The notes under the pieces: generated by a model
What the model saw: only the letters and a program-made list of their open reading frames with translations
What the model was told of the DNA's origin: nothing
Database searches by the model: none
Program-made: the position numbers and the translations under genes
Assembly: GCA_964576615.1 (NCBI GenBank)
Contig: CAZNUU010000001.1
Location: forward strand, 31,309-95,308
Direction of reading: 5' to 3'
Origin: an uncultured Candidatus Saccharibacteria bacterium
Lineage (GTDB): Bacteria; Patescibacteriota; Minisyncoccia; Phycocordibacterales; DATDWN01
DNA length: 64,000 nucleotides
In this document: positions 2,887 through 62,873 of the stretch, piece after piece
Layout of the letters: each line of letters begins with the position of its first letter
Position numbering within the stretch: position 1 is the first letter of the stretch

Positions 2887-3014
2887 TGGGACCTCCACTC
2901 TCATTATCTCAAACTAGCAGACATTTGTCAAGTCAATGTTTATTACTTATTCACAATAGAAAAAGGGCTGGGTTCGCGTATATCGCGTCCAGCCCTTCTA
3001 ACGCCGACTATGTA

Positions 3015-3215: not shown

Positions 3216-3332
3216 GACTACATCACCTCCTCCGCTAATAATTATACATGAATTAACATAAATTTCAAGTAGTCAGAGTCAAGTTTGTGTTGTGAAAGAA
3301 ATAATTAATTGTGGTTGTAGTATAATCAGATT

Positions 3333-10653: not shown

Positions 10654-11922
10654 TCACTTTCCCAAGGTGATTACTGTGCGCGCTCTTTGAGGGGTCATTT
10701 GATCGACGAGATTTGTCAGTTCCTCGTGGGGTATCGTGTCCACGTAGTTCAGATACATCTCGGCGGCAATTGTTTCCCCCGCAAGAACTATTTCAGAGAT
10801 GGCTACGGCCACGCTTCTGGTTGGGCTGGGGATCTGCATGTCGAGGTTGTTGCGCATGCCTGCTCTTACAGTGGCCCACCATTCCCTGGACCTGATTTGG
10901 GGGTCACTTCTTAGCATTTCCAGCAGGGCATTCTCGACCGCAGGGATTTTCTCAGAACTGGTATTGACCTCAAACCCAATGAAACCACCGTCGAGGGAGT
11001 GGAACCTTTCTTGGCTAGCGGTATATGCCAACTGCTTGTTCTCACGTACAGCGCGGTATAGAGGTGAGCCAAGCCCCCCAAACGTGAAGATCTGACCCAG
11101 CAAACCGTACCTCACTAAGTCGGTCCAACTTTTGAGAGCTGGGATCGGGAATACGACTGAGACCTGAGACGGCTCGAAGGAAGATTGAGCAACGAACCTC
11201 TTCTCCTTTGGCCAAGTCAGTTCACCATAAGATGGAGAACTCCTTCTTGGGGTTAGGCTGTTGGAAGGAAGTGACGCCAGAGGCTCGCTTAGAACCTGCA
11301 TGACTTCGTCTCTCTCCAAAGAGGTTGAGACCACGAAGATCATCCTGGATCTGTCATAACCTTTCATCCAGGCATTTCTAAGCACGTCCGGTGTCATCGA
11401 ATCAAGTGAGCTTGTTGTGCCAAGGGTACGATTCCCCAGCACATGCTCAGGAAACAATGATTCCCAGAGGTTGTACGAGTGACACCTCTCCAGACTTCCA
11501 AGAGCTCGCTTGATTTCCTGACCGATGATGTCTCTTTCGGCGACGATACCCTCGTCTGTGAGGAGCGGGCGAGCAACCAAATCAGTTACCAACCTTACTG
11601 CGGTTGGCAAAAATTTGTCGGGGATAGTAGCCCAGAAATTGGTACGAAGGGCGCTTGTGTTCGCGCCTGATTCGCCGCCAAATCTGGCTATTGTACCCTT
11701 TGTGTCAGTGTACCCATTCGGGAAGTTCACTGTTCCCCGGAATGGTGCGTGCTCGAACCAGTGGTAGAGACCTGGCTCTCCGCATGATGTGTCGTCGGCT
11801 GCTCCGACGAGGACTGTGAGTGAAATCCCAGTGCACTTTATGACCGACGGTAGCCGCTCATAAAATATGGGAATGCCATGTGGGCCAACTACTCTTTCAA
11901 ATTCAGTCATCCAAACCTCCAA
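10654..11922 (-). CDS. M16-family zinc metallopeptidase (pitrilysin/insulinase-like). GC-rich cassette.
   Basis: Inverted zinc-binding motif HxxEH (YHWFEHAPFRGT) near the N-terminus. 422 aa. GGAGG 6 nt upstream of the ATG. Hairpin at 10624-10650 followed by a T-tract on the minus strand. Confidence 0.7.
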   Translation of the reverse strand: MEVWMTEFERVVGPHGIPIFYERLPSVIKCTGISLTVLVGAADDTSCGEPGLYHWFEHAPFRGTVNFPNGYTDTKGTIARFGGESGANTSALRTNFWATIPDKFLPTAVRLVTDLVARPLLTDEGIVAERDIIGQEIKRALGSLERCHSYNLWESLFPEHVLGNRTLGTTSSLDSMTPDVLRNAWMKGYDRSRMIFVVSTSLERDEVMQVLSEPLASLPSNSLTPRRSSPSYGELTWPKEKRFVAQSSFEPSQVSVVFPIPALKSWTDLVRYGLLGQIFTFGGLGSPLYRAVRENKQLAYTASQERFHSLDGGFIGFEVNTSSEKIPAVENALLEMLRSDPQIRSREWWATVRAGMRNNLDMQIPSPTRSVAVAISEIVLAGETIAAEMYLNYVDTIPHEELTNLVDQMTPQRARTVITLGK

Positions 11923-12025
11923 AGTTTTGGTGGTGCTGTCTTTTCATACTATAATACGCAATTTTAAGTTAGTCAAATTTGACATATATTGACTTTATTA
12001 TCTTTTTCTGTATTATAAATTAATC

Positions 12026-12157
12026 ATGAAAAACATGATTAATTATCTAAATACTCATGGAAACGGCCGAAAGTGGCTTTGCACTTTTGCTGTCTCACTA
12101 AATCAGACTGCTTCTCCATTTGCAGGAGAAAGATCGCGCAGTGTTTTAATTGTTTGA
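12026..12157 (+). CDS. Candidate 43-aa small ORF (MKNMINYLNTHGNGRKWLCTFAVSLNQTASPFAGERSRSVLIV) in AT-rich spacer. Speculative.
   Basis: A sigma70-like promoter (TTGACT, 16 nt, TATTAT) lies just upstream, so the transcript would be near-leaderless. A palindrome AATCATGaaaaaCATGATT overlaps the start. A strong terminator follows at 12181-12210. No homology recognised. Confidence 0.2.
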   Translation: MKNMINYLNTHGNGRKWLCTFAVSLNQTASPFAGERSRSVLIV

Positions 12158-12180
12158 ATAAGTGACATATTTGAACGCTT

Positions 12181-12210
12181 AAAATGCCGCGTGAATCGCG
12201 GCATTTTTAG
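12181..12210 (+). terminator. Rho-independent terminator between the small ORF and the ABC gene
   Basis: aaaatgccgcg-tgaat-cgcggcatttttag: an 11-bp GC-rich stem followed by a T-tract. Confidence 0.65.
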
Positions 12211-12257
12211 TTCTTTTGTGTTCTTTCACATTCACAAATTCAGAATAGGAGGCGCTC

Positions 12258-14030
12258 TTGGAGAGAGAAAAGAAAAATCCACTCTCTTACCTTTTCGGTA
12301 AGACGTGGAAGTACTCACGGGGCAATCGCAGGAATGTAATTCTGTACATACTCATGCTCATCGCGAGCGAGTGTGTAAACACGTTCTGGTCGCCAGTAGT
12401 TATGGCCAATATCATGAACGTTGTGACGCGTGAGGGTGTAAGGAGGGAGAATTTATCAAAACTTCTTTTCCTGCTCTCACTTCTCATCGTAAGAACAGTC
12501 CTGTCCTGGGGGTTTCATGGCCCAGCTCGAGTAATCGAGCAGCTGAACGCCTTCAGGTCTAGAAGAAACTATTGGCAGTATCTTCTGGAAGGGGTGATGA
12601 ACTTGCCACTTGAGTGGCACACTGAGCATCACTCTGGGGACACCATCGACAAGATGAACAAAGGTACTGGTGCACTCTTTGATTTCTCAGGCGATTCGTT
12701 TGAGATAATCAAGCCTCTTGTTCTCCTTGTCGGCTCGCTTAGCATGATTGTCTACTTTAGCCCGATCTCGGTTGTCATTGTCGCAGTGATGATGGCACTT
12801 GGGGCTTGGGTTACGGTGGCTTTTGATGCAACGCTTGGTCCACAATACAGGCAGCTCAATCGTTTCGACAACAAGATTTCTGAACGCATTTTTGACACGG
12901 TCAGTAATATTTCGACTGTGATAATCTTGCGCGTAGAAAAACTTGTTTTTGAAACAATCATGAGAAAGGTTGATGAACCGTTCGATCTGTTCAAGCGAAA
13001 TGCAATCTTGAACGAATGGAAGTGGTTCTGGACCAGTGTCTGCGCAAATCTCATGGTGGTCTTCGTTCTCGGGTTTTATCTCTACCAGCATCTCGGTACT
13101 TCTGCCGGTGTTCTGGTCGGGAACGTCTATCTTCTCTTGAATTATCTCAACAAAGTTGGGGAACTGTTCTATCAGTTCACCTCACTTTATGGTGGGACGA
13201 TCAGAAGAAAGTATCGTGTCATGAATGCTGAAGAACTCTCGAAAGAGTTTCAGCCTTCTACGTTCGCAAACCACGTATTGCCAAAAGTGTGGAGTGAACT
13301 CTCGATCCGAAACCTCAACTTCTCCTACGGAGGAGGTGAGGGTGATCCACATCTGGATGATGTTTCAACACGGATCCAGCATGGGGAACACATTGCCATC
13401 GTCGGTGGCAGCGGTAGTAGCAAGACGACATTTCTCATGCTAATGAGAGATCTCTATCATCCGCAGAGTCTTACACTCTCTGTTGATAGCGTGGAAATTC
13501 CACATGGGTTCGAAGGTATAAGCAGAGCAATTTCGCTTGTGCCACAGGATCCTGAGATTCTGGCTACGACTATACGAGAGAACATCACGCTCGGCGCCGA
13601 GTACGACGAGAGGTTGGTTCGACACTACACAGACATGGCTTGCTTTACGGATGTGGTCGATAGTTTACCAAAAGGGTTCGACTCATCTGTAAAAGAAAAG
13701 GGGGTCAATCTCTCAGGTGGTCAGGTTCAACGTCTGGCTCTCTCGAGAGGACTCCTGGCTTGTCACGGCAAGGACATTGTCCTTCTCGATGAGCCGACCT
13801 CAAGTCTCGATGTGGTAACTGAGATTACAGTTTACCGGAACATTCTCGTAGCGTTCCGAAACAAAACCGTAATCTCAACGGTGCACAGACTTCAACTTCT
13901 CCCGCTTTTCGATCGTGTTTGCATGTTCGAGAAGGGGAGGATCGTTGGGTCTGGAACTGTTCAGGAACTCTTACTGAGTTGCCCGCAGTTCGAGGCTCTC
14001 TGGAATAGGCAGTTTGTTGATCCAGTGTGA
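12258..14030 (+). CDS. ABC exporter, fused TMD-NBD half-transporter with non-canonical Walker A. GC-rich cassette.
   Basis: Six-TM N-terminal domain. Walker A reads VGGSGSSKTT, with Ser where the conserved Gly of GxxxxGK[ST] sits. Signature LSGGQVQRLALSRGLL. Walker B VLLDEPTSSLD. H-loop TVHRL. AGGAGG sits 6 nt upstream of the TTG start at 12258. Terminator hairpin at 14033-14060. Confidence 0.8.
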   Translation: MEREKKNPLSYLFGKTWKYSRGNRRNVILYILMLIASECVNTFWSPVVMANIMNVVTREGVRRENLSKLLFLLSLLIVRTVLSWGFHGPARVIEQLNAFRSRRNYWQYLLEGVMNLPLEWHTEHHSGDTIDKMNKGTGALFDFSGDSFEIIKPLVLLVGSLSMIVYFSPISVVIVAVMMALGAWVTVAFDATLGPQYRQLNRFDNKISERIFDTVSNISTVIILRVEKLVFETIMRKVDEPFDLFKRNAILNEWKWFWTSVCANLMVVFVLGFYLYQHLGTSAGVLVGNVYLLLNYLNKVGELFYQFTSLYGGTIRRKYRVMNAEELSKEFQPSTFANHVLPKVWSELSIRNLNFSYGGGEGDPHLDDVSTRIQHGEHIAIVGGSGSSKTTFLMLMRDLYHPQSLTLSVDSVEIPHGFEGISRAISLVPQDPEILATTIRENITLGAEYDERLVRHYTDMACFTDVVDSLPKGFDSSVKEKGVNLSGGQVQRLALSRGLLACHGKDIVLLDEPTSSLDVVTEITVYRNILVAFRNKTVISTVHRLQLLPLFDRVCMFEKGRIVGSGTVQELLLSCPQFEALWNRQFVDPV

Positions 14031-14078
14031 ATGTCCGCCCCGCGCCAAAATGGCGCGGGGCAAACTTTAGGAGGAGTT

Positions 14079-14654
14079 ATGGCTGAAAAAGTTGTGTTTC
14101 TCTCGGGCAGGAAAACAAACCTACGTCCCGTGAGTCGTGCAGATATCCCTACACTACTCCGCTGGGTCAATGACCCAGAAGTGCGGGACTTTGTTCTCGG
14201 GACCTTTCCGTGGACGGAGAAGATGGAAGAAGACTGGTTCGACAAACTGGGCAAGGATGAGAGCAAGGTGACTCTGGTGATCGAGACCAAGGAGGGCAAA
14301 GCCATTGGAACGATGGGGATTCACAACATAAACTGGGTCAGCCGCACAGGCACGACTGGGGCGATGATCGGGGAAAAGGATTGTTGGGGGCAGGGTTATG
14401 GCACCGACGCCAAGCTCGTTCTCCTGCAATACGCCTTTGATACCTTGAATCTCTTCCGGATTCGCTCGGACGTGATTGGGTTCAACGATCGTAGCGTGAG
14501 GTACAGTCTGCGCTGCGGTTACAAGGTGGAGGGCACTCGGCCAAAGGATATCTTCAAGAGAGGACAATATTGGGATCGAATCGAACTCGGAGTTTTCCGG
14601 GAAGACTGGTTCCCAATTTGGGAAAAGTATCAGCAAACCGGCAAGGTCCGGTGA
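14079..14654 (+). CDS. GNAT N-acetyltransferase (RimJ/RimL-like). GC-rich cassette.
   Basis: RimL-like layout: WVNDPEVRDF..., acetyl-CoA motif region GQGYGTDA, and YAFDTLNLFRIRSDVIGFNDRSVRYSLRCGYKVEG. AGGAGG 6 nt upstream of the ATG at 14079. Terminator gggctcgc-gaaa-gcgagccc plus TTTCTTT at 14661-14690. Confidence 0.7.
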   Translation: MAEKVVFLSGRKTNLRPVSRADIPTLLRWVNDPEVRDFVLGTFPWTEKMEEDWFDKLGKDESKVTLVIETKEGKAIGTMGIHNINWVSRTGTTGAMIGEKDCWGQGYGTDAKLVLLQYAFDTLNLFRIRSDVIGFNDRSVRYSLRCGYKVEGTRPKDIFKRGQYWDRIELGVFREDWFPIWEKYQQTGKVR

Positions 14655-14716: not shown

Positions 14717-16498
14717 ATGGAAACTATTAGGGAGAAACATACAAATGTTTCAGTTGGACAAATAATTGAAAAATTTTGGCAGAGCACTGGAAGGTATAAG
14801 CCTTGGTTTCTCGTTGCTTTTATCTTCTTTCTACTTGCTCAAGTTGCCACTGTTATAGTACCTATATTTTATAAAAGTTTTTTTGATATTCTCGGAAGTC
14901 ATCCAGACAAAACAGAAGCAGTGAAGAGTTTGATGAGAATAATAGAAATTGTTCTCATTCTGCGACTTACCAACTGGCTTTCCTGGAGAATTGCAATAAA
15001 TATTTATCAAAATATGCAAGCTAGGGTTATGGCTCTTATCAAACAAACTTCTTTTGATTATCTAACGAGCCACTCTTATAGTTTTTTTGCAAATACATTT
15101 GGCGGTAGTCTAGTCCAAAGATTGAATCGTTTCAGTAGAGCGTTTGAAGCGATAACCGACAACATAACTTTTAGTTTACTTCCATTGTTTGTAACAATCA
15201 TTGGTTCAATGATTGCAGTCTATAGGTTTGCACCACTACTCTCTGGGGTATTGGCAATCTGGATAGTAGCATTTGGAGTTTTTAGCGTGTCGTTTTCTCG
15301 TTGGAAGATGAAATATGATTTAATTTCCTCTGAGGCTGATTCGGTAACTACTGGTTATCTTGCAGATGTCATTACTAATAATTCGTCAGTCTCTTTCTTC
15401 ACTGGGCATGAATATGAATCGATCGGATTCAGAGAAGTAACAGATGATCAGACCAAGAAGACATTATATTCATGGAAACTTGGTGATATAACTGATGCAG
15501 TTCAAATGTTCTTACTCATCCTAGTAGAGTTTTTTATCTTTTATTACGCAATTAAATTTTGGTCACAAGGTCTCATAACAGTTGGTACCTTTGTCTTGGT
15601 CCAGACGTATATTATTTCATTGTCGGGTCAGCTCTGGGGTTTGGGTAAAATTGTTAGAAATTTATACCAAAACATAGCCGAATCTAAGGAAATGGTTGAA
15701 ATCCTAGATACGCCGCATGAAATTAGGGATTTACCAGGAGCCAAACCTATTAAAATAGAAAGTGGCCAAATAGAATTCGATAATGTCACTTTTGGTTTTT
15801 CTAAAGACAGCAAGATAATAAATGATTTTAATCTTAAAATTAAGGGTGGAGAAAAAGTGGCGATTGTCGGTCCAAGTGGTTCAGGCAAGACTACTCTCGT
15901 CAGGCTAATTATGCGAGTTTATGATGTAGGCAAAGGTGCGGTAAAGATTGATGGCCAAAATATTAAAGATATTACTCAAAGTAGTTTGCGTGAAAGTATT
16001 AGTTTTGTGCCACAGGATCCGGTGTTATTTCACAGGACGTTAATGGATAATATCCGATACGGTAGGCGACACGCCACCGACCAAGATGTTATTGCAGCTG
16101 CAAAATTAGCCCATTGTGATGAATTTATCGATAAACTCCCCTTAGGTTACCAGACATATGTGGGGGAAAGAGGAATAAAGTTATCAGGAGGTGAGCGTCA
16201 AAGAGTGGCAATTGCAAGAGCAATATTAAAACACGCACCCATACTAATATTTGATGAAGCTACATCTAGTTTGGATTCGTATTCTGAGCATTTGATTCAG
16301 GATGCATTGGAGAATCTTATGAAAAATTGTACTACCATAGTTATAGCGCACAGATTATCAACTATAAAAAAGATGGACAGAATTATTTCAATGAGGGAAG
16401 GTCAGATCGTCGAGGAAGGTACACACGATGAGCTTACAAGTAAGGAATCTGGTCTCTATAAGAAACTTTGGGATCTACAAAGTGGTGGGTTTTTGTAA
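14717..16498 (+). CDS. ABC exporter, fused TMD-NBD half-transporter with canonical motifs (AT-rich, backbone-like)
   Basis: Walker A GPSGSGKTT. Signature LSGGERQRVAIARA. Walker B ILIFDEATSSLD. H-loop IAHRLSTI. No SD. Confidence 0.85.
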   Translation: METIREKHTNVSVGQIIEKFWQSTGRYKPWFLVAFIFFLLAQVATVIVPIFYKSFFDILGSHPDKTEAVKSLMRIIEIVLILRLTNWLSWRIAINIYQNMQARVMALIKQTSFDYLTSHSYSFFANTFGGSLVQRLNRFSRAFEAITDNITFSLLPLFVTIIGSMIAVYRFAPLLSGVLAIWIVAFGVFSVSFSRWKMKYDLISSEADSVTTGYLADVITNNSSVSFFTGHEYESIGFREVTDDQTKKTLYSWKLGDITDAVQMFLLILVEFFIFYYAIKFWSQGLITVGTFVLVQTYIISLSGQLWGLGKIVRNLYQNIAESKEMVEILDTPHEIRDLPGAKPIKIESGQIEFDNVTFGFSKDSKIINDFNLKIKGGEKVAIVGPSGSGKTTLVRLIMRVYDVGKGAVKIDGQNIKDITQSSLRESISFVPQDPVLFHRTLMDNIRYGRRHATDQDVIAAAKLAHCDEFIDKLPLGYQTYVGERGIKLSGGERQRVAIARAILKHAPILIFDEATSSLDSYSEHLIQDALENLMKNCTTIVIAHRLSTIKKMDRIISMREGQIVEEGTHDELTSKESGLYKKLWDLQSGGFL

Positions 16499-19322: not shown

Positions 19323-19700
19323 TTATTTCTTGTACCAGTCTGGCCAAGCATTCTCCGGTGGAACCCCTTTTCTGAAGTTTACCTTTGCCTGGTCAAACGC
19401 CAGCTTGGTCTTGTGGTCCAGCCGTGTTCCCAATGGGATGCCCAGGATCTCCCGTAAGGCCACGTCAATGTGGTGCCAACCCTTTTTCCAAATGTTTTTG
19501 CTCTCCAGAAAAAGGGGGTTTTGGACCTGGACCAAGTCACCCAGGAAAGGGTAAGCCTCGTACTTGTCGCTCGGCAAATGCTTCTGAGGGGCCTTCTTGT
19601 CGTTCTTGAGTCGTCTCACCCAAAGAAGGCTTCTGCCGTAGAAGAAAACGTTCTTGGTACTCAGAAGCATTGCTCTCATCTGGTATTCGGTCAGCCTCAT
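19323..19700 (-). CDS. Hypothetical protein, 125 aa (GC-rich cassette)
   Basis: GC-rich. GGAGG 6 nt upstream of the ATG (rc: aaaGGAGGtaccaATG). Followed by its own terminator. No recognisable motif. Confidence 0.4.
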   Translation of the reverse strand: MRLTEYQMRAMLLSTKNVFFYGRSLLWVRRLKNDKKAPQKHLPSDKYEAYPFLGDLVQVQNPLFLESKNIWKKGWHHIDVALREILGIPLGTRLDHKTKLAFDQAKVNFRKGVPPENAWPDWYKK

Positions 19701-30958: not shown

Positions 30959-32189
30959 TGGAATTAAAAGATTTAGTTTTGTAGTATTGTCAGTCCTAAT
31001 AGTTGGCAATACTGCTTTTGCGCAAGAAGCCACCACTAGCGATACTTTAAAGGCCAAAATCGAGGAGAGAAACAACCAGATAAAACAGCTAGAGCAAGAA
31101 ATAAATCAATATAACGGCGAAATCCTCAATACTCAAGGGCAGGCAAGGACCCTCCAAAACACAATTAAAACTCTTGATTTAACTCGAAAGAAGATTAGTA
31201 CTGACATAAATTTAACTCAGGCCAAAATAACCAAGGCGTCTTTGAGTATCGATGATATTGATGAGAGGATTAGTGACAATAAAGCTGCGATAACTGCAGC
31301 GATCAGAAATACCAGCTTTCAAGAAGACCAGGGGCTGGTGATGACCATTCTCTCTAAAAAAAATATTGGTGAGGTTTGGGGTGATATTGATAATATAAAG
31401 CAAGTCCGTGATCTCATTCGAGTTAGAACAGGGGAACTTTCTATCCTAGAAGATAATCTTAAAATTCAGAAAAAAGAATTACAGGGGCTAAAGCAGGACC
31501 TCACAGGTAAAAAGCTGGTGGTTGAAGTCAATAAAAAAGAAAAATCTGACCTTTTAACTGAAACAAAGAATAAAGAGCAGACTTTTAAGGATCTAGTTAA
31601 GACGAAAGAACAGCTGAAGGCACAATTTGAGGCAGAAGTTTATGATTATGAGTCACAGTTAAATTATCTTATCGACCCAAAGAGTTTTCCGGGCCCTCAA
31701 CATGGTATATTATCCTGGCCGCTGGACACAGTTTTTGTTACCCAGAAATTTGGTAAAACAGTCGGTGCCGAGAGACTTTATACTTCAGGAACACATAATG
31801 GAGTGGATTTTCGAGCTACAGTTGGTACTCCAGTCAAAAACGTATTAGACGGTACTGTCTCTGGGACAGGCAATACTGATGCTTATCCGGGTTGCTACTC
31901 TTTTGGTAAATGGGTTTTGGTTCGTCATGATAATGGTTTATCTACTATATATGGTCACTTATCTGTTATAAGTGTGAGCCAAGGCCAAAGATTAAGCACT
32001 GGAGAGATAGTTGGCTACAGTGGTAACACCGGATATTCGACTGGCCCTCATCTTCACATCACAGTTTATGCCACACAAGGTGTTCGAGTAGAGAAATATG
32101 TAAATAGTCGCGGCTGTAAAGAGGCAATAATTCCACTTGCAGACCTAAGGGCTTATCTTGATCCTCTGGCATATTTTCCAAGTTTGTAA
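30936..32189 (+). CDS. M23-family peptidase (LytM domain) with N-terminal coiled coil (EnvC-like)
   Basis: Signal/TM segment and long coiled coil. M23 motifs HNGVDFRATVGTPV and GNTGYSTGPHLHITVY. Confidence 0.75.
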   Translation: MQLQNYHNGIKRFSFVVLSVLIVGNTAFAQEATTSDTLKAKIEERNNQIKQLEQEINQYNGEILNTQGQARTLQNTIKTLDLTRKKISTDINLTQAKITKASLSIDDIDERISDNKAAITAAIRNTSFQEDQGLVMTILSKKNIGEVWGDIDNIKQVRDLIRVRTGELSILEDNLKIQKKELQGLKQDLTGKKLVVEVNKKEKSDLLTETKNKEQTFKDLVKTKEQLKAQFEAEVYDYESQLNYLIDPKSFPGPQHGILSWPLDTVFVTQKFGKTVGAERLYTSGTHNGVDFRATVGTPVKNVLDGTVSGTGNTDAYPGCYSFGKWVLVRHDNGLSTIYGHLSVISVSQGQRLSTGEIVGYSGNTGYSTGPHLHITVYATQGVRVEKYVNSRGCKEAIIPLADLRAYLDPLAYFPSL

Positions 32190-32201
32190 GATAATTTAAA
32201 T

Positions 32202-32399
32202 ATGAAAAGAAATGAAGGCTTTATCCTAAAGATAGTCCTGATTATTGTTGCCCTAGTTTTGCTTAAATATTTCCTCCACTTTGATGTCATTGAATACCTA
32301 AAGACTCCTCAAGCTCAAAAAGTCATCGGTCCTATCTGGACAGCAATAAAAGCTTTTTATAATTGGTTAGATACTTTGGTTCGAGGCTGGGTCACCTAA
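32202..32399 (+). CDS. Small membrane protein (65 aa)
   Basis: Single TM helix. AT-rich. Confidence 0.35.
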   Translation: MKRNEGFILKIVLIIVALVLLKYFLHFDVIEYLKTPQAQKVIGPIWTAIKAFYNWLDTLVRGWVT

Positions 32400-32865
32400 T
32401 TTACCTATCAAGGTTTATGGGGCAGGGGGACTTCCCTATTGGGGAATAGTTTTTTTGAGATAGATTTGACCTTGAGTTGGGAGTAGATTGTGCGATATTT
32501 TTATGTTGCACAATCTACGATATCTTTTGCTACGTAGCACCCACGCATTAGTTATGGGCGAGTAGTTGTTTTACAAATTTCATATAAATGAGTTAATAAG
32601 CTTCCTTATCCTAGGTGCTATGGGCAAAAGATATATTGTGCGACACAGCCCTAAGCTATCCCCTAAGCATCTAGAGTATATAGGTCAGGCTTTATTTAAA
32701 AATAAATATGCATTAAAATTATATGACCCGAAGTAAGGAGACTGGCCAACCATACTTCCTCCCTAACAAGAGTTTACGGGATGGCCAACCGCAGGTTTCA
32801 GATAATTGGTGTGCGCACCCAATGATTCTGATGCAATCCCTGCGGTTTTGATTATTTAGTTCCAT

Positions 32866-33663
32866 TTATACAAGACTCCAAATCTCTTCACTAAGTCTTT
32901 TTGCTTCGATTTTTGGGTCAGCAGCAAATATTATTCCTCTTGATGAGTTAATAATTAGCCCAAGACCGTCTCTATCTTTACCTGAACTCATCACGTCTTT
33001 TACTGAACCACCTTGAGCCCCGACTCCAGGCACTAAAAAAGTCAGATTTGGACAAATTTCTCTGATTTTTTTCATTTCGTTAGGATAGGTAGCCCCGACT
33101 ACAAGCATACAATTTCCATTTTTATTCCACTTGTCATTGACTTCTGTTGCTACTTTTTGCCACAGAGGCACGCCGTCAGAAATTAAATCCTGAAAATCTT
33201 TAGATCCTGGGTTTGATGTTCGGCATAGAACGACTGAAACCTTGTCACTTCTGTCTAAGAAGGGCTGAATTGCTTCTTGACCTAGGTAAGGGTGTAAAGT
33301 AACTGCATCAAAGCCCAGCCAATCAAAAATAGACTTAACATACCCATTATTCGTGTTACCAATATCGCCTCTTTTGGCGTCCAGAATTGTAAAGATCTCT
33401 GGGTGGTTGCTAGAGAGATATTCCATTGTCATCTTTAACTCGGAAATACCGCCATCACCTCTTGCTTCGTAAAAAGCAGAATTTGGCTTATAAGCAGCGG
33501 CATAGTCGTTTGTTTCTTCAATTATCCATTTGTTGAACTCGAATTGAGGGTGTTTTAGCTTTTTGAACTTCTCAGGGATCTTGTCGTAGTCAGAGTCAAG
33601 CCCCACACATAATAGTGAGTTAATTTTCAACGCCCGTTTATTGTACTTATCGTTTGTATTCAT
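32866..33663 (-). CDS. pyrF: Orotidine 5'-phosphate decarboxylase
   Basis: LCVGLDSD and ILDAKRGDIGNT motifs. Start taken at the internal Met at 33663, giving 1-nt spacing to pyrE. Confidence 0.75.
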   Translation of the reverse strand: MNTNDKYNKRALKINSLLCVGLDSDYDKIPEKFKKLKHPQFEFNKWIIEETNDYAAAYKPNSAFYEARGDGGISELKMTMEYLSSNHPEIFTILDAKRGDIGNTNNGYVKSIFDWLGFDAVTLHPYLGQEAIQPFLDRSDKVSVVLCRTSNPGSKDFQDLISDGVPLWQKVATEVNDKWNKNGNCMLVVGATYPNEMKKIREICPNLTFLVPGVGAQGGSVKDVMSSGKDRDGLGLIINSSRGIIFAADPKIEAKRLSEEIWSLV

Positions 33664-36472: not shown

Positions 36473-36646
36473 ATGGATCCTGATGCCCCAATTGTTCGGG
36501 AAATGAAAGTCGTGATTCCGAAAGAGTTAGCCGATAGGCTTCGGCCTCTCGCGCAACACCGCAATCAAAGTGTCGAGGACTACGTTCTCTCTATTGCGAC
36601 CGAAAAGGCCGACGAGGATGACCGTCGCAGGCGAAATGACACCTAA
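36473..36646 (+). CDS. Ribbon-helix-helix (CopG/Arc-like) DNA-binding protein, 57 aa. GC-rich cassette, orphan.
   Basis: Not in the track because it is under 60 aa. GGAGG 4-5 nt upstream of the ATG. Sequence MDPDAPIVREMKVVIPKELADRLRPLAQHRNQSVEDYVLSIATEKADEDDRRRRNDT has the RHH beta-strand/helix pattern. Terminator hairpins at 36650-36700. Confidence 0.5.
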   Translation: MDPDAPIVREMKVVIPKELADRLRPLAQHRNQSVEDYVLSIATEKADEDDRRRRNDT

Positions 36647-37905: not shown

Positions 37906-37953
37906 TTATCGATTATTATAAGACAAACTGAAGATCAAGTGAAGATCTAGAGA

Positions 37954-39033
37954 CTAAATCCCCTCACTTTTTAAACTGTCGATAATCTTTTTGGCTTCTT
38001 TTGATAGTTTCTTGGGAATAAGTATGTTTAGCCTAATTAGCAAATCACCCCGATGACTTTTCTCTAGGGGGACTCCCTTGCCTTTAACCCTTAGTGTCTC
38101 CCCAATTGACACTCCTTCCGGAATTTTCACACTAATTTTCCCATCTAAAGTCTCGATAGTTCTCTCTGCTCCCAGGAGGGCCTCTGTAAGCTTTACTCCA
38201 AGTTCCATTACCAGATTACTGCCTTCCTTTCGCATAAATGGGTGCTTCTTTACATAAACTCTTACATATAGATCACCTGGCTGACCACCTGGAACTGCTT
38301 CACCCACTCCTGAAAGTCTCATCATCTCGCCATTTTCTATGCCTGGCGGTATTTTAATTTTTATGGCGGATTCTTTTTTTAATACTCCCCTGCCGTGACA
38401 AGTATGGCACTTAACTTTCGGAATTTTGCCTGAGCCCATACAAGTCTCACAGGTAGTTGTAGTTTCAAATTGCCCAAAAAAAGTCTTCTTAACTTCTCGC
38501 AATGTTCCCTTGCCATTACAAGTAGTACAGGTAACAGTCTCAGTTCCTGGCTCAGCTCCAGAGCCAGCACATGTGTCACATTTGGAGACTTTATTAAGAA
38601 GCACCTCTCTTTCTGTGCCAAAAATCGACTCCTCAAACGAAAGTTCTATGTCAATTGAAATATCTCGCCCACGCTTTGCCTCTTTTCTCCTGCCTCCACT
38701 AAAAACATCCGAAAAAATATCACCAAAATCAAATTCAAAACCTTGGCCATTACCTTGGGTAAATTGAGAAAAATCAAATCCTCCAAAACCATTCCCGAAG
38801 CCGGAGTTACCAGCCCCACCGCCAAAGGTTCGACCATAGGAGTCGTATTCTGCACGTTTTTTATCATCAGAGAGTACTGAATATGCCTCGTTTATTTCCT
38901 TAAATTTCTCTGCATCACCTGATTTTTTGTCTGGATGATATTTATGAGCCAAATTTCTGAAAGCTTTTTTTATTTCATCCTTGGGAGCCTTTTTGTCTAC
39001 GCCCAGTATTTGATAGTAGTCCTTGCCTGACAT
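37954..39033 (-). CDS. dnaJ: Chaperone DnaJ
   Basis: J-domain with HPD (KDYYQILGVDKKAPKDEIKKAFRNLAHKYHPDK). G/F region. Four CxxCxGxG zinc-finger repeats. Confidence 0.9.
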   Translation of the reverse strand: MSGKDYYQILGVDKKAPKDEIKKAFRNLAHKYHPDKKSGDAEKFKEINEAYSVLSDDKKRAEYDSYGRTFGGGAGNSGFGNGFGGFDFSQFTQGNGQGFEFDFGDIFSDVFSGGRRKEAKRGRDISIDIELSFEESIFGTEREVLLNKVSKCDTCAGSGAEPGTETVTCTTCNGKGTLREVKKTFFGQFETTTTCETCMGSGKIPKVKCHTCHGRGVLKKESAIKIKIPPGIENGEMMRLSGVGEAVPGGQPGDLYVRVYVKKHPFMRKEGSNLVMELGVKLTEALLGAERTIETLDGKISVKIPEGVSIGETLRVKGKGVPLEKSHRGDLLIRLNILIPKKLSKEAKKIIDSLKSEGI

Positions 39034-39114
39034 AAATTTATTATAAGACTTTTTGAGTCAGTGTGTACTTGACTAAAATACTTTTTATGTTAGACTTTGG
39101 ATAGGAGGATTTTC

Positions 39115-39339
39115 ATGGGTGAGAGCATCTCAGAGTGGGGCGACCGAATGCAGGCAGTCTGGGCAGGCTTACCGGGTTTCGAGAGACGAGCAATTCTCTT
39201 TCGGGCGGCAGTGAGAAACCATCACTGGTTACCCGAAGAAATCTCAGAAATGGCCATGCCATGGTCACTCGTCGATCTCACGGTGAAGCTGGGTGAGCGA
39301 TTCAGCGGCGTCGTATACGAAGCGCTTGCTGGGAAGTAA
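39115..39339 (+). CDS. Hypothetical small protein P1 (GC-rich 4-gene cassette)
   Basis: AGGAGG 6 nt upstream of the ATG at 39115. GC-rich. No recognisable motif. Confidence 0.35.
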   Translation: MGESISEWGDRMQAVWAGLPGFERRAILFRAAVRNHHWLPEEISEMAMPWSLVDLTVKLGERFSGVVYEALAGK

Positions 39340-39411
39340 CCGAGAGCAGCCGGGTGGGCAACCACTCGGCTGAATTGTTTTTGTATGATAAAGTTCACCT
39401 GGAGGGACGAG

Positions 39412-39687
39412 ATGTCCAAGCAAAATGACTGGGAAGCTGCGACTCGGAGTGCAAGAACTCTTACGAAGTCGCTCTCGGAATGCGCTAATGAGGCAGTGGT
39501 AGCTCTTATCTTGGGAACTCTTGTTGTCAGAATTCGCAAAATCTGCGGGAGAAAACTCGTCGACAAGATGATCAGAGAAAAACAAAGGACGGCAGAGGCA
39601 GTAGCTACAGGCCTCTGCTTCATCTGTGAGAAGAATCGAGTTGCCCGCAAGGGTGACATTTGTAAGAGCTGCAATAAGAAGTTCTAA
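39412..39687 (+). CDS. Hypothetical small protein P2 with C-terminal CxxC...CxxC zinc-ribbon
   Basis: GGAGG upstream of the ATG at 39412. Hydrophobic segment AVVALILGTLVV. C-terminal CFICEK...CKSC. Confidence 0.35.
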   Translation: MSKQNDWEAATRSARTLTKSLSECANEAVVALILGTLVVRIRKICGRKLVDKMIREKQRTAEAVATGLCFICEKNRVARKGDICKSCNKKF

Positions 39688-39748
39688 CTACCGGCAGGAG
39701 ACCCTCGCCGGTTTCCTGTTTCTGAGGTATTGTTTGGATGGAGGCTTT

Positions 39749-39979
39749 ATGAAATTTGAACGCTGCTTGGAGTGTGGAGGTATTTCCACGACGACGATCC
39801 TTGTTTCGAAGGGGCCGCTTCTGCGGTCGCAGGGAGCATCGTGCAGTGAGCATGTAGATGCGGTAGCACAGCGTCTGGAGCGTAGTCTCAATTCGCCTGC
39901 TCCCGTGCCGAAACGGCCAAGTTTCTTGTCACGTCTCTTCGGAGCATTCGGACTGGAGGCGCTGGATGGGTCATTCTGA
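39749..39979 (+). CDS. Hypothetical small protein P3 with N-terminal CxxC motif
   Basis: GGAGG upstream of the ATG at 39749. N-terminal MKFERCLECGG...CSEH. Confidence 0.3.
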   Translation: MKFERCLECGGISTTTILVSKGPLLRSQGASCSEHVDAVAQRLERSLNSPAPVPKRPSFLSRLFGAFGLEALDGSF

Positions 39980-40256
39980 CTCAAGACTAGAGCTACGTTG
40001 GCCAGTGCAAGTGCTGGGTCATGATGACACAGTTGTTCGGGAAGTTGGACGATTTCGCAACCCGCGCGAGGCATTCGATTTCCTACAGAGAGTACCTGGC
40101 CTTGTCCAGATTGTGGGAGTGAGAGGTAACGACTCCCCAATCAGTGCAAGATTTAGGTATACCCCTACCGGAGTCGAAGCACGCATTGGGCGACAATGTC
40201 ATATCCGAACATTACGTGCTACCACTGCTGCACTGCAAAGAGCCCTCGAAAAATGA
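39966..40256 (+). CDS. Hypothetical small protein P4
   Basis: Start overlaps the P3 stop (translational coupling). A hairpin gccctcga...tcgagggc spans its stop codon and is followed by a T-tract. Confidence 0.3.
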   Translation: MGHSDSRLELRWPVQVLGHDDTVVREVGRFRNPREAFDFLQRVPGLVQIVGVRGNDSPISARFRYTPTGVEARIGRQCHIRTLRATTAALQRALEK

Positions 40257-40276
40257 ACATCGAGGGCTCTAAACTT

Positions 40277-42178
40277 TTATTTGTTATCCTCTGGTTTTTT
40301 TTCTTCAAAGTCGGCATCCCGCACATTTCCATCTTGTTTACTTTCTTCCTTTGGTGGAGTTTGGTTTTGTTGAGCAGTCCTATTTATAATTTCTCCTATC
40401 TTTTGTAATTCAGCTGAAAGCGCCTGGGTCGCAGATTTAATGGAATCCATACCATCTCCATCCTTCGCCTTTTTGAGGTCAACAATTTTACTTTCGATTG
40501 ATGCTTTTAGATCAGCCGGAACCTTATCCCCTGCCTCCGTGAGTGATTTTTCTGAAGTGTAGATTAGTTGTTCTGCAATGTTTTTAGCTTCAACCAAATC
40601 TTTTTTCTTAGCATCATCCTGCGCATGGGCCTCTGCATCTTTTTGCATTTTCTCAATGTCTTCTTTGGAAAGAGATGAGCGAGCCTCGATTCTTATAGAT
40701 TGCTCTTTATTCGTCGCCTTGTCTTTTGCTTTTACAGCCAGAATCCCGTTAGCATCCACATCAAATGTTACTTCTACCTGAGGCATGCCTCGTGGAGATG
40801 GTGGGATACCATCCAAGATGAACCTGCCCAGAGATTTGTTATCACCGGCCATCGCTCTTTCCCCTTGAACAATATGAATCTCAACCGATGTTTGGTTATC
40901 TGCTGCGGTTGAGAAAACCTGAGATCGTGAAGCTGGGATCGTAGTGTTTTTATCAATTAATTTTGTGGCAACCCCGCCCATAGTTTCAATTCCAAGAGAA
41001 AGTGGAATTACATCCAAAAGCAAGACGTCTTTGACGTCACCGGAGAGGATTCCACCTTGAATTGCGGCGCCTAAGGCCACCACTTCATCCGGGTTAATTG
41101 ATTTGTTTGGTTCTTTGCCAAAATACTCCTTAACTTTTTCTTGGATTTTTGGCATCCGGGTCTGTCCACCAACCAAGATCACCTCATTAATTTGAGAAGT
41201 AGAGAAGCCGGATGATTCCAGTGCTCTTTTGGTTATAGACATCGCTCGATCAATCAAATCCCCCGCTAATTCCTCAAGTTTAGCGCGGCTTATCTTTATA
41301 AGAAGGTGACGTGGGCCAGAACTATCTGACGTAATAAACGGAATGTTTACCTCAGTTTCCATAGCCGTAGAAAGTTCAATTTTGGCCTTTTCAGCCGCTT
41401 CATCCAGTCTCTGGAGAGCCAATGTATCACTACGAAGATCTATTCCAGATTCCTTTTTAAATTCATCAGCCAAGTAATTTATGATTTTCTGGTCGATATC
41501 CTTTCCTCCCAAGTGGCTATCTCCATCAGTCGATTTAACTTCAATAACGGAATCTCCAACCTCTAGAATTGAGATGTCGAATGTCCCACCACCAAAGTCG
41601 AAGACAGCTATCTTCTCTTCTTTCTTGCCTTTATCAAAACCATAAGCCAAAGCAGCGGCTGTTGGTTCATTTATGATTCGAAGAACATTCAATCCCGCAA
41701 TTTGACCTGCGTCCTTTGTCGCCTGTCTTTGGGAGTCGTTAAAATATGCGGGAACTGTGATAATTGCATCTGTTACTTTGCCCCCCAGCTTTGCCTCTGC
41801 GTCAGTTTTTAGTTTAGAGAGAATCATTGCAGATACCTCCTCCGGAGAATAATCTTTGTCTGCAATTTTAATTGAGACACCGCCCTTTGCTGATTTACTT
41901 ACCTCAAAAGGGACAATAGCCTTGTCTTTCTGCACAGGCTCGTCATCAAAGTTATGACCAATGAATCTTTTAATCCCGAAGACAGTATTTTTTGCATTTG
42001 TTACTGCTTGTCTTTTGGCGAGAAGACCGACAAGTCTTTCGCCTGTTTTAGAGACAGCAACAATTGAGGGTGTAGTTCTCGCACCCTCTGAATTTTCTAA
42101 TATCTTCGGCTGTCCGGCTTCCATAACCGCGACTGCCGAGAATGTTGTACCTAAGTCTATTCCTATTGTTTTTGACAT
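40277..42178 (-). CDS. dnaK: Chaperone DnaK (Hsp70)
   Basis: [22 protein letters not shown] and other Hsp70 signatures. 633 aa. Confidence 0.95.
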
Positions 42179-42232
42179 GATTTTATAATTGACAATTAGA
42201 TTTTAAATGGTAGCTTAACAGAAGGAGGTCTT

Positions 42233-42448
42233 ATGCAGGTGACGTGGGATGGTGACGCTCTTGTATTCGTTGCAACCGAGGAGGAGGATCAGGCTACTCT
42301 GAGAACTCTTGCGGCCCAATCTGAATTGAGGTTCATGGTCTCAAGGGTTGAAAAGGATCGATATGTACGTGACACCCTTGAGTGGACTGTTGAAGAGATC
42401 CAGATGAGTCCGCTCCAGCCTCCATCACCAAGAAGTAGACGAAAGTAA
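42233..42448 (+). CDS. Hypothetical small acidic protein (GC-rich cassette)
   Basis: AGGAGG upstream of the ATG. Terminator cgccgagaac/gttctcggcg plus TTT 6 nt after the stop. Confidence 0.3.
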   Translation: MQVTWDGDALVFVATEEEDQATLRTLAAQSELRFMVSRVEKDRYVRDTLEWTVEEIQMSPLQPPSPRSRRK

Positions 42449-42486: not shown

Positions 42487-42783
42487 TTACAGAGTAGGTG
42501 CTCTGGGTTTAGAACCAGTAAAATCGTAAACTTTTATTTTTGCAAAAGCTGGTTGAGGATTAATTTTTAATAGGATCAAAACATTCTCGGAAACTTTTTT
42601 ATATAAACTAAATAGGAATTGTGTCACCTTACCTACAATTTGTTCCAGGATTGTAAGATCAACAAGTCTTGCTTTGAGTCTCCCCTCTCTCTCATATACA
42701 AAAAACTTAGCTCGGACTAATTTTCCTTTTTTATATGTGAATACTTTTTCAATTGTTTCGCCTCTTTGTTGTGATAGTTGCAT
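42487..42783 (-). CDS. Hypothetical protein (98 aa), translationally coupled to grpE
   Basis: AT-rich backbone composition. Start overlaps the grpE stop (ATGA). Confidence 0.4.
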   Translation of the reverse strand: MQLSQQRGETIEKVFTYKKGKLVRAKFFVYEREGRLKARLVDLTILEQIVGKVTQFLFSLYKKVSENVLILLKINPQPAFAKIKVYDFTGSKPRAPTL

Positions 42784-43379
42784 TATTTTTCGTAGTGTCC
42801 GACCCTAACTTTTGGGGGACGTATTTCCTTGCCATTTAATTCATAACCGAGTGATATGACATCCAGTATTTTACCCTCATCTCTGTCACTGTCAACTTTT
42901 TCCGTGCCAACAGCTTCGTCTCTTTTTGGATCGTATATTTCACCGATCGGGTTAATGACTTTGAGACCATGCTGAGACAGGATGCTATTTAGATGTGAGT
43001 GAATGTATTCTACTCCCCTGCGCCAATTCTGATCTACTTTTTCCCAAGCTTCCTTATTTTTAAACGCTGACTCAAAAGCATCCAGAACAGGTAGAAGTTC
43101 AGAAATAATATCTGCCTTTGCAAATTTTAGAAACTCCTGTCTTGCTTCGTCATCTTTTTTACGAGCATTGATAAAATCAGCTTTATCCCTCTGCCAAGAA
43201 TCCAATAGCTTCCCATTCTTCTCTTCCAGTTCTTTTATTTTTGCTTTTAACTTTGCAATCTTTTGATTGTGGTCTGCACCGGTAACTTCAGTGTTTTCTT
43301 CAAAAACAACATCATCACCTGGATCAGTATCCAATTCTTCTTCATTTTTTAAATCTTTATTGTCTTTATCTTTATTCAT
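42783..43379 (-). CDS. grpE: Nucleotide exchange factor GrpE
   Basis: Acidic N-terminus and coiled coil. C-terminal GrpE beta domain (ILDVISLGYELNGKEIRPPKVRV). Confidence 0.8.
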   Translation of the reverse strand: MNKDKDNKDLKNEEELDTDPGDDVVFEENTEVTGADHNQKIAKLKAKIKELEEKNGKLLDSWQRDKADFINARKKDDEARQEFLKFAKADIISELLPVLDAFESAFKNKEAWEKVDQNWRRGVEYIHSHLNSILSQHGLKVINPIGEIYDPKRDEAVGTEKVDSDRDEGKILDVISLGYELNGKEIRPPKVRVGHYEK

Positions 43380-43463
43380 TTTGACACATTATAACAAAAG
43401 TGGTTTGGGCCAGTTATTGACAGATCGTATATATTATTATATTTTATCCCGGGAGGTTGTGTG

Positions 43464-43697
43464 ATGATCGCTAACGAAGTAGTACGCGAAGTGACGCAAA
43501 GAGTCTTTTTCTCGTTGCTGGGCGTCGGCTGTGCGGGGTTGGTAGTCGCCACGGCCATCATCCTGTCCAAGATTGAAAGGGCTCGCGACAGTGTCCTGAA
43601 GGCCATATTCGAGTCTGACCCCACTCACTCCAGGCTCACAGATGCGGATCGCTGGATGAAATGGCGGAAGTTCCGGGAGGAAGTCCTTAAGACCTGA
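43464..43697 (+). CDS. Hypothetical small membrane protein (GC-rich cassette)
   Basis: GGGAGG 7 nt upstream of the ATG at 43464. One TM helix (FFSLLGVGCAGLVVATAIIL). Hairpin terminator at 43701-43727. Confidence 0.35.
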   Translation: MIANEVVREVTQRVFFSLLGVGCAGLVVATAIILSKIERARDSVLKAIFESDPTHSRLTDADRWMKWRKFREEVLKT

Positions 43698-43871
43698 CCG
43701 GAGGCAGAAGATGCCTCCGGTCTTCTGCGTTATTGATTATCGTTTACTCCAATTAGGTGCGCGAGAGTCCATCCAGGCTCTCGCTTCTGGGAAACCCACG
43801 GTTTTCCCAATCCTTCCTCCACAGGAAAACACCCAGTTTTCCTGACACCTTTCTGCTCCGAAGTGGAGCAA

Positions 43872-44261
43872 TTACCTCTTGCTCCACTTCGGAGCCTTCC
43901 TAGCTTTCTTCAGACCGAATTTGCGTCTTTCTTTGGCTCGTGGATCTCGTTTTAAATGTCCTGCCTTCTTTAGAGTTTTTCGAAGAGTTGCATTGTGTTC
44001 TACCAGAGATCTAGCAATACCGTGTCTAAGCGCCTCAGATTGAGAGTGAATACCACCACCGGAAACTTTTACGGAAACACTAAACTTGCCCTCTACTTCT
44101 GAAAAGGGTTGCTTTACGATATTTTGCATTTCTGCACCCTGAAAATAAGTTTCCAAATCCTTACCATTTATTACAAATGTAGTCTTTGAAGCAGGAGTCA
44201 TTCTTACTCGTGCAACCGATGTTTTTCTTCGTCCTATTCCTTCTATGTATTTTTCTGTCAT
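43872..44261 (-). CDS. rpsI: 30S ribosomal protein S9
   Basis: C-terminal ...RKKFGLKKARKAPKWSKR. 129 aa. Confidence 0.9.
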   Translation of the reverse strand: MTEKYIEGIGRRKTSVARVRMTPASKTTFVINGKDLETYFQGAEMQNIVKQPFSEVEGKFSVSVKVSGGGIHSQSEALRHGIARSLVEHNATLRKTLKKAGHLKRDPRAKERRKFGLKKARKAPKWSKR

Positions 44262-54761: not shown

Positions 54762-54998
54762 GTGAGATTTAGCGAGATAAAGCAGTGGCAAATAATAGTC
54801 ACTGCCTCGATCGGGCCATTTCCCGGCTACACCAAATGGAAGAAGACTTCCGTAAATCATGCAGAGTGGGCAGGGTTTGACAGCCTGCCACCTGGGGTGA
54901 GTAAGGAAGAAATGCTCTCTAGTCGCGGCAAAGTTCTCGAGCTTGGCTTCGAAGAAGAAGTCAGTCTCGCCGGAATGGCACGTTATAACTTCAGATAA
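54762..54998 (+). CDS. Hypothetical small protein (GC-moderate cassette with SD)
   Basis: AGGAGG at 54751-56. GTG at 54762 is preferred over the track start at 54756. The hairpin ggcacgttat...ataacgtgcc spans the stop codon. Confidence 0.3.
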   Translation: MRFSEIKQWQIIVTASIGPFPGYTKWKKTSVNHAEWAGFDSLPPGVSKEEMLSSRGKVLELGFEEEVSLAGMARYNFR

Positions 54999-62552: not shown

Positions 62553-62873
62553 ATGCTGGAAAAAAGACCAAGACGACCGCTTCACGAAGTGCTGCCCGAT
62601 CTGATTCGGTTGGCCTCGAGTGATGACCTGCTGTGCTATGGAGGTCTCATCGTACTTACGGAAATCCCGAAAAACCATGACCAGATCGCTGCCGCCTGGA
62701 AGAAGCGCTGCGCTGACATGGGCTGGGGCGAGAACGCAGCACAGCACGTCATGGACGATCTTGCCGCTCAGAAGCGCGCCGCCGAAGACAAGGCCGCCGC
62801 CAAGGTTGTGAGCATGGTCCACACACCCGCGGCTGGGGCTCCCGCCGAGGGCGAGCCTTCGCTCAGCAGCTGA
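62553..62873 (+). CDS. Hypothetical small Ala-rich protein (GC-rich cassette)
   Basis: AGGAG upstream of the ATG. GC-rich. Terminator caggcgtacga-ttaacc-tcgtacgcctg at 62879-62906 followed by an A/T tract. Confidence 0.35.
   Translation: MLEKRPRRPLHEVLPDLIRLASSDDLLCYGGLIVLTEIPKNHDQIAAAWKKRCADMGWGENAAQHVMDDLAAQKRAAEDKAAAKVVSMVHTPAAGAPAEGEPSLSS

Follow-up and report, generated by a model that had tools for sequence, protein, structure and literature searches.

Horizontally transferred DNA together with genomic islands can account for up to 13% of the genome in Patescibacteria (PMC12455944), and the use of Shine-Dalgarno (SD) sequences and of the anti-SD varies across the Candidate Phyla Radiation (CPR) (PMC9297842). 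The subject of this report is a GC-rich block of 1,243 bp (positions 39034-40276) that lies between dnaK and dnaJ in a 64,000-nucleotide stretch of DNA from an uncultured Candidatus Saccharibacteria bacterium (assembly GCA_964576615.1, contig CAZNUU010000001.1, positions 31,309 to 95,308), the whole of which is referred to as the window. The block carries four small open reading frames (ORFs), designated P1 to P4, all of which run opposite to the chaperone genes. We favor, with moderate confidence, the reading that this block is a lineage-specific accessory islet consisting of four real genes for orphan small proteins in a slot of recurrently variable content, and that it is not a conserved chaperone-linked or defense module. 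Both published observations fit with this reading. As an accessory islet made of ORFans the block is a known kind of thing; the proteins themselves are novel.

Like the islets and islands described in Patescibacteria (PMC12455944), the block has an atypical composition, sharp bounds, orphan genes and variable content at a fixed slot flanked by core genes. Unlike them, it is only 1.2 kb long, is GC-richer than its host, has no known donor homologs, and is accompanied by no integrase, tRNA or flanking repeats; a sister islet, moreover, appears to have been inherited vertically with extreme divergence. When judged as a horizontally acquired islet, the block shows atypical composition and translation signals, and the slot is polymorphic for presence and absence, but no donor or homolog from outside the lineage was found. 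The block also resembles integron-like cassette arrays (clusters of attC sites lacking integron integrases, or CALIN) in that short ORFs on one strand are each followed by a hairpin. Its hairpins differ from those of such arrays in being short perfect GC stems with U-tracts, of the intrinsic-terminator type, that are unrelated to one another. An attC reading was rejected on this hairpin form and on the missing core sites, as no R''/R' cores (GTTRRRY) were seen by eye; there is no integron integrase among the ORFs examined.

The chaperone genes are normally contiguous, as the sequence-only reading had assumed: among the first 80 related loci retrieved by way of DnaJ, dnaK and dnaJ are less than 300 nucleotides (nt) apart in most of those where both are present. 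The ORF map and the GC profile likewise agree with its description of a GC-rich block of about 1.2 kb on the opposite strand that parts dnaK from dnaJ. The GC content of the gap is 0.49-0.55 in 300-nt segments and about 52% overall, compared with 0.407 across the window, and the transition at either edge is sharp. Four packed small proteins of about 74 to 96 amino acids (aa), each preceded by a GGAGG SD sequence, had been proposed, and all four are present, with 6, 6, 4 and 6 nt separating GGAGG from the ATG of P1, P2, P3 and P4, respectively. GGAGG occurs five times on the plus strand of the block and never on the minus strand. Four of the five occurrences are at the starts of P1 to P4, which is far beyond chance. 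Note that an alternative ATG at 39385 would extend P2 to 100 aa; gene callers in public data take the 91-aa form.

Coding potential was assessed with a codon model trained on those GC-rich genes of the window that have Pfam domains or encode a recognizable ABC transporter (TonB_C, M16 peptidase, ABC and GNAT). Under this model the annotated frame outscores the other five in each of P1 to P4, with values that resemble leave-one-out controls. On these sequence features, P1 to P4 look like real small-protein genes. Several longer ORFs (two of 150 aa, one of 106 aa and one of 77 aa on the antisense strand, and a 117-aa extension of P3) were considered as remnants of pseudogenes and set aside; they have no Pfam match, and the antisense ORFs score below the P frames in the codon model. 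Had the four ORFs been fragments of a known larger gene, the earlier description would have failed, but neither strand holds pseudogene fragments of known families. Searches with tblastn and blastn gave no paralogs of P1 to P4 within the window.

No homolog of P1 or P4 was found among 5.8 billion proteins, where both are singletons, and each of the four proteins forms a singleton 90% cluster found in this organism only. Searches of Pfam, NCBIfam, PHROGs and PADLOC gave nothing above threshold, in agreement with the earlier statement that none of the four belongs to a recognized family. The PHROGs searches yielded only matches with E ≥0.23 and PADLOC yielded none. No PDB sequence match to P1 or P4 was better than E 0.28, IMG/VR viral scans with P1, P3 and P4 gave no relative, INPHARED gave no DNA or protein match with E <0.2, and plasmid records gave no match at the DNA or protein level. 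Pfam and NCBIfam revealed no recognizable toxin or antitoxin domain in P1 to P4. There are no convincing terminal inverted or direct repeats around the block and no integrase or transposase among the ORFs flanking it, and the only tRNA of the window is 36 kb away. The neighbors of the block are dnaK, dnaJ, grpE and pyrC, not a defense island or a mobile element. A defense or anti-defense function had been suggested for the block; neither PADLOC nor PHROGs nor the phage and plasmid searches gave a signal for it.

P2, alone of the four, was used as the query in an exhaustive HMMER scan, which covered 1.84 billion representatives and returned three distant homologs (E 9e-6, 3.5e-4 and 5e-4). The resulting family of four shares an N-terminal helical region followed by an invariant G-[LI]-CxxC-X11-CxxC, the cysteines of which (C69, C72, C84 and C87 in P2) are present in all four members. 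A profile made from the family recovers its own four members and no others. When AlphaFold2 was supplied with this small alignment, P2 was modeled with a predicted local distance difference test (pLDDT) score of 89.6 as three helices and then a zinc knuckle (∼89 within the knuckle). P2 is, as judged from sequence and model, a C4 zinc-ribbon-type protein with a predicted zinc site. It is like known C4 zinc-ribbon and knuckle proteins (DZR_2, Zn_ribbon and the DksA/TraR-type C4 finger) in placing CxxC-X11-CxxC at the C terminus, after a helical region, and in its basic isoelectric point (pI). It is unlike them in remaining below the cut-offs of curated zinc-ribbon families in Pfam (16 bits versus 27 for DZR_2, 14.4 versus 23.2 for zf-Tbcl_FmdE), in having no zf-dskA_traR match and in carrying a three-helix N-terminal domain for which structure searches gave generic helical matches only. 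CsoR/FrmR-type three-helix repressors that sense metals or thiols are also among the closest known systems considered.

The sequence-only reading had assigned zinc-ribbon motifs to two of the proteins. The cysteine motifs are present as it quoted them, and the assignment stands for P2, with its full C4 set conserved in three homologs. For P3, there is one CxxC (C6/C9) to which only C32 and H35 can be added, and the protein matches no curated zinc-ribbon family. The single-sequence model of P4 (pLDDT 52) was unusable.

The block is one part of a second population of genes that extends across the window. Host genes have a GC content of about 0.40 (∼0.33 at third codon positions, GC3), almost never carry an SD sequence, and in many cases have TATAAT 6-9 nt before the ATG. 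P1 to P4 have a GC content of 0.47-0.56 and a GC3 of 0.38-0.60, with GGAGG in four of four cases, and the GC-rich ORFs of the window as a group are GGAGG-led with GC contents of 0.47-0.61. GGAGG at proper spacing precedes 17 of the 18 GC-rich ORFs compared with 1 of the 49 host-like ones (Fisher p 9e-14). These ORFs form about ten islets in the window, located beside pyrC, grpE, dnaK and unrelated genes. At 9 of 10 islet loci the ORFs run antisense to the neighboring genes (binomial p 0.02), and strong hairpins follow nearly all of them. Because an islet of this type lies upstream of each of grpE, dnaK, dnaJ and pyrC, and of unrelated genes as well, the position of P1 to P4 at the chaperone locus is not special.

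One of these islets provides a view of how its genes evolve. W71 (window 42233-42448, plus strand, 71 aa) and L73 (1810-2031, minus strand, 73 aa, in the related locus L085) occupy the same slot upstream of dnaK, which is bounded on its other side by a gene of 98 or 99 aa, and both are antisense. BLASTP found no match for either protein; the pair was detected by full Smith-Waterman alignment, which is collinear over almost the full length (score 53, z 7.1, equaled by none of 2,000 shuffles). Identity is ∼25%, compared with 84% for the DnaK proteins of the same two genomes. Both genes keep their SD sequence and a GC content near 0.5. Given this similarity at ∼25% while DnaK stands at 84%, some islet genes appear to be inherited vertically and to diverge extremely fast, which can explain their orphan status. 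Retention of ORF and SD in spite of such divergence argues for selection on both, and retention of a GC content near 0.5 indicates that recent transfer does not by itself account for the GC-richness.

These observations bear on the explanation that the block is inert or decaying foreign DNA, the ORFs of which are never or no longer expressed and which is tolerated between transcription units. Such DNA could well be of atypical GC content, bear SD sequences in a genome whose own genes lack them, and look orphan, and in some CPR lineages the anti-SD is absent (PMC9297842). We nevertheless consider inert DNA unlikely, as all four ORFs are intact, with SD sequences at optimal spacing and terminators to match; the zinc ligands of P2 are also intact, and fragments of known families are missing from both strands. 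In addition, W71 and L73 keep ORF, SD and length through ∼75% protein divergence, which points to selection on translation.

Reading P1 to P4 as an accessory islet agrees with what is found in the same slot of related genomes. For this comparison, 160 related loci were fetched with DnaJ, and in most of them the dnaK-dnaJ gap is shorter than 300 nt. No homologs of P1 to P4 were found in 164 related loci. The dnaK-dnaJ gap, 1,243 bp in the window, measures 1,937 bp in L085, 571 bp in L006, 381 bp in L005, 156 bp in L086 and 139 bp in L087, and the contents are non-homologous. In L085, the closest relative, the gap has a GC content of 0.49-0.60, versus 0.43 for the locus. It holds two ORFs for Cys-rich paralogs (28% identical, E 4e-17) with repeated W..C.CG.C...Y.G.YFW-like motifs that belong to no Pfam or PADLOC family, plus an antisense 80-aa ORF that begins with TTG and lacks an SD. 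The gap of L005 holds an SD-led antisense ORF of 76 aa and that of L006 an SD-led antisense ORF of 92/97 aa; those of L086 and L087, which come next in relatedness, are empty. No similarity between P1 to P4 and the gap ORFs of relatives was detected by Smith-Waterman alignment with shuffles (z ≤2.3), and only 40-60 nt beside the dnaJ start are conserved between gaps. More distant CPR genomes with large gaps have same-strand genes of host composition there. Thus, as far as sequence comparison goes, the dnaK-dnaJ slot has been filled repeatedly in this lineage, on each occasion with other genes. The proposal that placement inside the chaperone locus is meaningful is not upheld, given that relatives hold unrelated ORFs or none in this place and that islets of the same type lie beside unrelated genes.

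The block probably comprises three transcription units (P1, P2 and P3-P4) and not the single operon that had been proposed, since terminator-like hairpins with U-rich tails close P1 and P2. The third unit ends in a hairpin that parts the ORFs from dnaK. This structure (−20.4 kcal/mol on the plus strand, −22.7 on the minus strand, z about −5) is well folded whichever strand is considered, and 6 nt separate it from the dnaK stop codon; the suggestion that a hairpin around the P4 stop doubles as the dnaK terminator is in keeping with this. P3 and P4 do overlap, but not as an ATG overlapping the preceding stop codon: P4 begins within P3, so that the two genes share 14 nt, and there is no ATGA-type junction. 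At the other end of the block, dnaJ appears to keep a promoter of its own, of the leaderless type, because TACACA-16-TATAAT ends 6 nt before its ATG. The corresponding motif, CTTATAAT, is also present in L085 and L005. Whether dnaJ had retained its promoter was a question put by the sequence-only reading, and from the sequence the answer would be yes.

According to that reading, P1 to P4 form a compact operon that is a candidate for a novel regulatory or defense/anti-defense module. Taken further, this view would tie the module functionally to the chaperone locus, where zinc proteins might, for example, modulate DnaK/DnaJ or replace the missing control by HrcA and its operator, the controlling inverted repeat of chaperone expression (CIRCE). 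Tight packing on one strand, the overlap of P3 with P4 and the zinc-type motifs in P2 and P3 are all compatible with such a module, and rapid evolution and variable content would suit genes engaged in conflict. There is also no hrcA beside grpE, no CIRCE operator was found anywhere in the window with up to 3 mismatches allowed, and grpE, dnaK and dnaJ each have a divergently oriented small ORF just upstream. The absence of hrcA and CIRCE leaves a small opening for divergent small genes that regulate chaperones; that the same layout is seen at unrelated genes, pyrC included, argues against it. The remaining evidence makes the module quite unlikely. Terminator-like hairpins close P1 and P2, and no PADLOC or PHROG match was obtained. 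The slot holds unrelated genes in relatives and none in L086 and L087. No co-occurrence of the four genes was seen elsewhere: P1 and P4 are without homologs, and P0003, the one of the three distant P2 homologs whose neighboring genes were visible, is unaccompanied and in a different context, where it follows a Dus gene on a contig that also has an FtsQ-like gene.

A further possibility is that the genes were born de novo within the lineage, or recruited onto divergent transcription from strong leaderless host promoters, with SD sequences and ORFs gained subsequently. Both genomes have the 12-mer CAAAGTCTAACA (window 39085-39096; L085 ∼5908-5919) at 54-86 nt upstream of dnaJ. Read on the strand of the gap ORFs, it is TGTTAGACTTTG and constitutes a −10-like box, although the ORFs downstream (P1 in the window, the 80-aa ORF in L085) are unrelated. 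This shared antisense box, TGTTAGACT, together with the lack of homologs anywhere and the head-to-head arrangement of all islets with a host promoter at 54-118 nt, is what such an origin would lead one to expect. We regard it as very unlikely because the GC-rich composition is opposite to what AT-rich intergenic DNA would supply, the P2 family is found in unrelated contexts, and the larger islet genes contain old domains.

GC-rich islands in AT-rich genomes are often RNAs, and the folding of the whole block exceeds that of dinucleotide shuffles (z −4.4 on the plus strand, −4.0 on the minus strand), as could be seen for a structured non-coding or regulatory RNA in which ORFs arise by chance in GC-rich sequence. 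When 200-nt segments were analyzed, however, the excess was confined to three hairpins (one behind P1, one near where P2 ends, and the terminal one), and ordinary GC-rich genes reach similar values. Rfam searches of the whole window gave only tRNA-Glu at the gathering threshold and nothing at E ≤1 on the block. A structured RNA element was rejected on these two grounds, the restriction of the signal to local hairpins after stop codons and the lack of an Rfam match, and no DNA homologous to the block was found in which covariation could appear; SD placement, the frame test and the protein homologs of P2 all indicate coding sequence, which makes an RNA highly improbable. Finally, the joining of GC-rich foreign reads into the chaperone locus by faulty assembly or binning, which the sharp shift in composition at both edges and the origin of the sequence from a metagenome-assembled genome might bring to mind, is scarcely credible, because three independent per-run contigs from two sequencing runs cross both composition boundaries at 100% identity and relatives from other samples share the architecture.

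If the accessory-islet reading is correct, P1 to P4 would be cytoplasmic proteins encoded by self-contained SD-ORF-terminator cassettes (P1, P2 and P3-P4) set in the interval from the dnaK terminator to the dnaJ promoter; the core genes of this Patescibacteria-like genome are AT-rich and lack SD sequences. The islet would be a member of the GC-rich, GGAGG-led and mostly antisense gene population that fills gaps between transcription units; its position at the chaperone locus would be incidental, and the content of the slot would turn over between related genomes. The genes would presumably be transcribed from their own sigma-70-like promoters and translated via their SD sequences. The likeliest role for P2 (basic, three helices, C4 knuckle) and for P4, which is very basic, would be that of small accessory factors that bind nucleic acids or proteins. 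All four may belong to a rapidly evolving and possibly conflict-related pool of genes; fast turnover hints at such roles.

Several points weigh against this account. P3 and P4 have frame scores close to zero, the weakest of the four, although still the best of six, and the coding evidence for P1, P3 and P4 comes from SD placement and frame statistics only. An origin by recent horizontal gene transfer fits poorly, as 5.8 billion proteins contain no donor homolog, and the preservation of SD sequences and of GC content near 0.5 in W71 and L73 suggests that the composition is maintained and is not a relic. Note also that some CPR lineages are without an anti-SD in their 16S rRNA (PMC9297842).

Coordinates of the block, of its neighbors and of related features are collected below. 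Plus and minus denote the strand of the sequence named; positions are those of the window unless a related locus is given.

Table 1. Features of the dnaK-dnaJ block, its surroundings, and comparable ORFs
Feature	Position	Strand	Description
dnaJ	37954-39033	-	359-aa ORF; identical product on record with Pfam DnaJ, DnaJ_C and DnaJ_CXXCXGXG
dnaJ promoter-like site	39040-39067	-	−10 box 6 nt before the dnaJ ATG
P1 promoter-like site	39069-39096	+	sigma-70-like TTGACT-16-TAGACT, TG before the −10 box
P1	SD 39104-39108; CDS 39115-39339	+	74 aa, pI 5.6, no Cys
Terminator-like hairpin after P1	39347-39372	+	11-bp stem with 8 GC pairs, then AATTGTTTTT; −23.5 kcal/mol, z −4.4
P2	SD 39401; CDS 39412-39687	+	91 aa, pI 9.9; three predicted helices, then C-terminal CxxC-X11-CxxC
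Hairpin after P2	39689-39729	+	followed by U-rich tract; −18.6 kcal/mol, z −2.9
P3	SD 39740; CDS 39749-39979	+	76 aa; N-terminal CxxC, then C32 and H35
P4	SD 39955; CDS 39966-40256	+	96 aa, pI 11.2; overlaps the end of P3 by 14 nt
Bidirectional terminator-like hairpin	40239-40270	both	11-bp perfect stem, 10-nt loop holding the P4 TGA
dnaK	40277-42178	-	633-aa ORF; 82-84% identity to DnaK of L005 and L085
TATAAT-type host starts	39034-39058 (dnaJ); 42179-42203 (dnaK); 43380-43404 (grpE); 37906-37930		
AT-rich ORF between grpE and dnaK	42487-42783; L085 1474-1773; L005 7314-7619	- (window)	98-101 aa, same strand as grpE and dnaK, abutting the grpE stop
Other small GC-rich SD-led ORFs	2084-2392; 36473-36646; 42233-42448; 43461-43697; 43711-43845; 54762-54998; 62553-62873	+	36473-36646, 42233-42448 and 43461-43697, the three looked up, are singleton clusters in the protein collection
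Other small GC-rich SD-led ORFs	2653-2886; 3015-3215; 19323-19700	-	
GC-rich gene, TonB_C	1189-1914	-	
GC-rich gene, M16 peptidase	10654-11910	-	
GC-rich gene, ABC	12258-14030	+	
GC-rich gene, GNAT	14079-14654	+	
tRNA-Glu	2455-2527	-	only tRNA of the window
L085 gap ORF, 145 aa	L085 4343-4780	-	antisense, SD-led; GC 0.54-0.58 for this and the 164-aa ORF
L085 gap ORF, 164 aa	L085 4902-5396	-	antisense, SD-led
Per-run contig L165	34954-39139		100% identity to the window
Per-run contig L002	39269-40928		100% identity to the window
Per-run contig L001	39433-41099		100% identity to the window

Upstream of grpE, rpsI sits in the place where an adjacent hrcA is missing (42783-44261). The AT-rich ORF between grpE and dnaK is a better candidate for a chaperone-linked protein of unknown function than P1 to P4. 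Its copies in the window and in L085 (98 and 99 aa) have the motifs ARFFVYE..GR.KARLVD and SGSKPRAPT in common; the L005 ORF is matched by position and size only. No Pfam or NCBIfam match was obtained.

Elsewhere in the window, the TonB_C gene is proline-rich (Pfam E 1e-20, GC content 0.61) and lies near several orphan SD-led ORFs. The tRNA-Glu gene is located inside the same GC-rich stretch (150-3250), which may be an acquired segment. All genes of the GC-rich cluster at 10654-14654 (M16-type peptidase, ABC and GNAT) are SD-led, and the ABC gene that adjoins it (14717-16498) is AT-rich. The orientation of host genes changes from plus (3333-32189) to minus (32866-63943), so that genes converge at about 32189-32866, as they do at a replication terminus.

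A wider interpretation is tentative, and on balance doubtful. GC-rich SD-ORF-terminator cassettes in the gaps between terminators and promoters, nearly always antisense to the core genes of an AT-rich and essentially SD-less genome, could constitute a gene population common to the whole lineage, in which slots are kept across species while the sequences within them diverge or are replaced, with GC content and SD sequences held by selection. Such a population could serve as a dedicated and separately translated pool of fast-evolving arms-race genes in interactions with hosts or phages.

With this block, the large pool of uncharacterized genes in Patescibacteria grows by four orphan small proteins, of which P2 represents a new and very small zinc-knuckle family of four members, and the analysis removes the suggestion of a chaperone-linked or defense module. 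More is to be learned from the context. One genome contains two clearly distinct gene dialects: AT-rich core genes that lack SD sequences and have TATAAT directly before the ATG, and GC-rich, GGAGG-led antisense cassettes placed in the gaps. At least one cassette appears to have been inherited vertically and yet has diverged by ∼75% while DnaK differs by 16%. If this pattern is true genome-wide, it would offer a tractable way to study how accessory genes are acquired, retained and expressed in ultra-small symbiotic bacteria, and would show whether SD-dependent versus leaderless initiation separates core from accessory genes.

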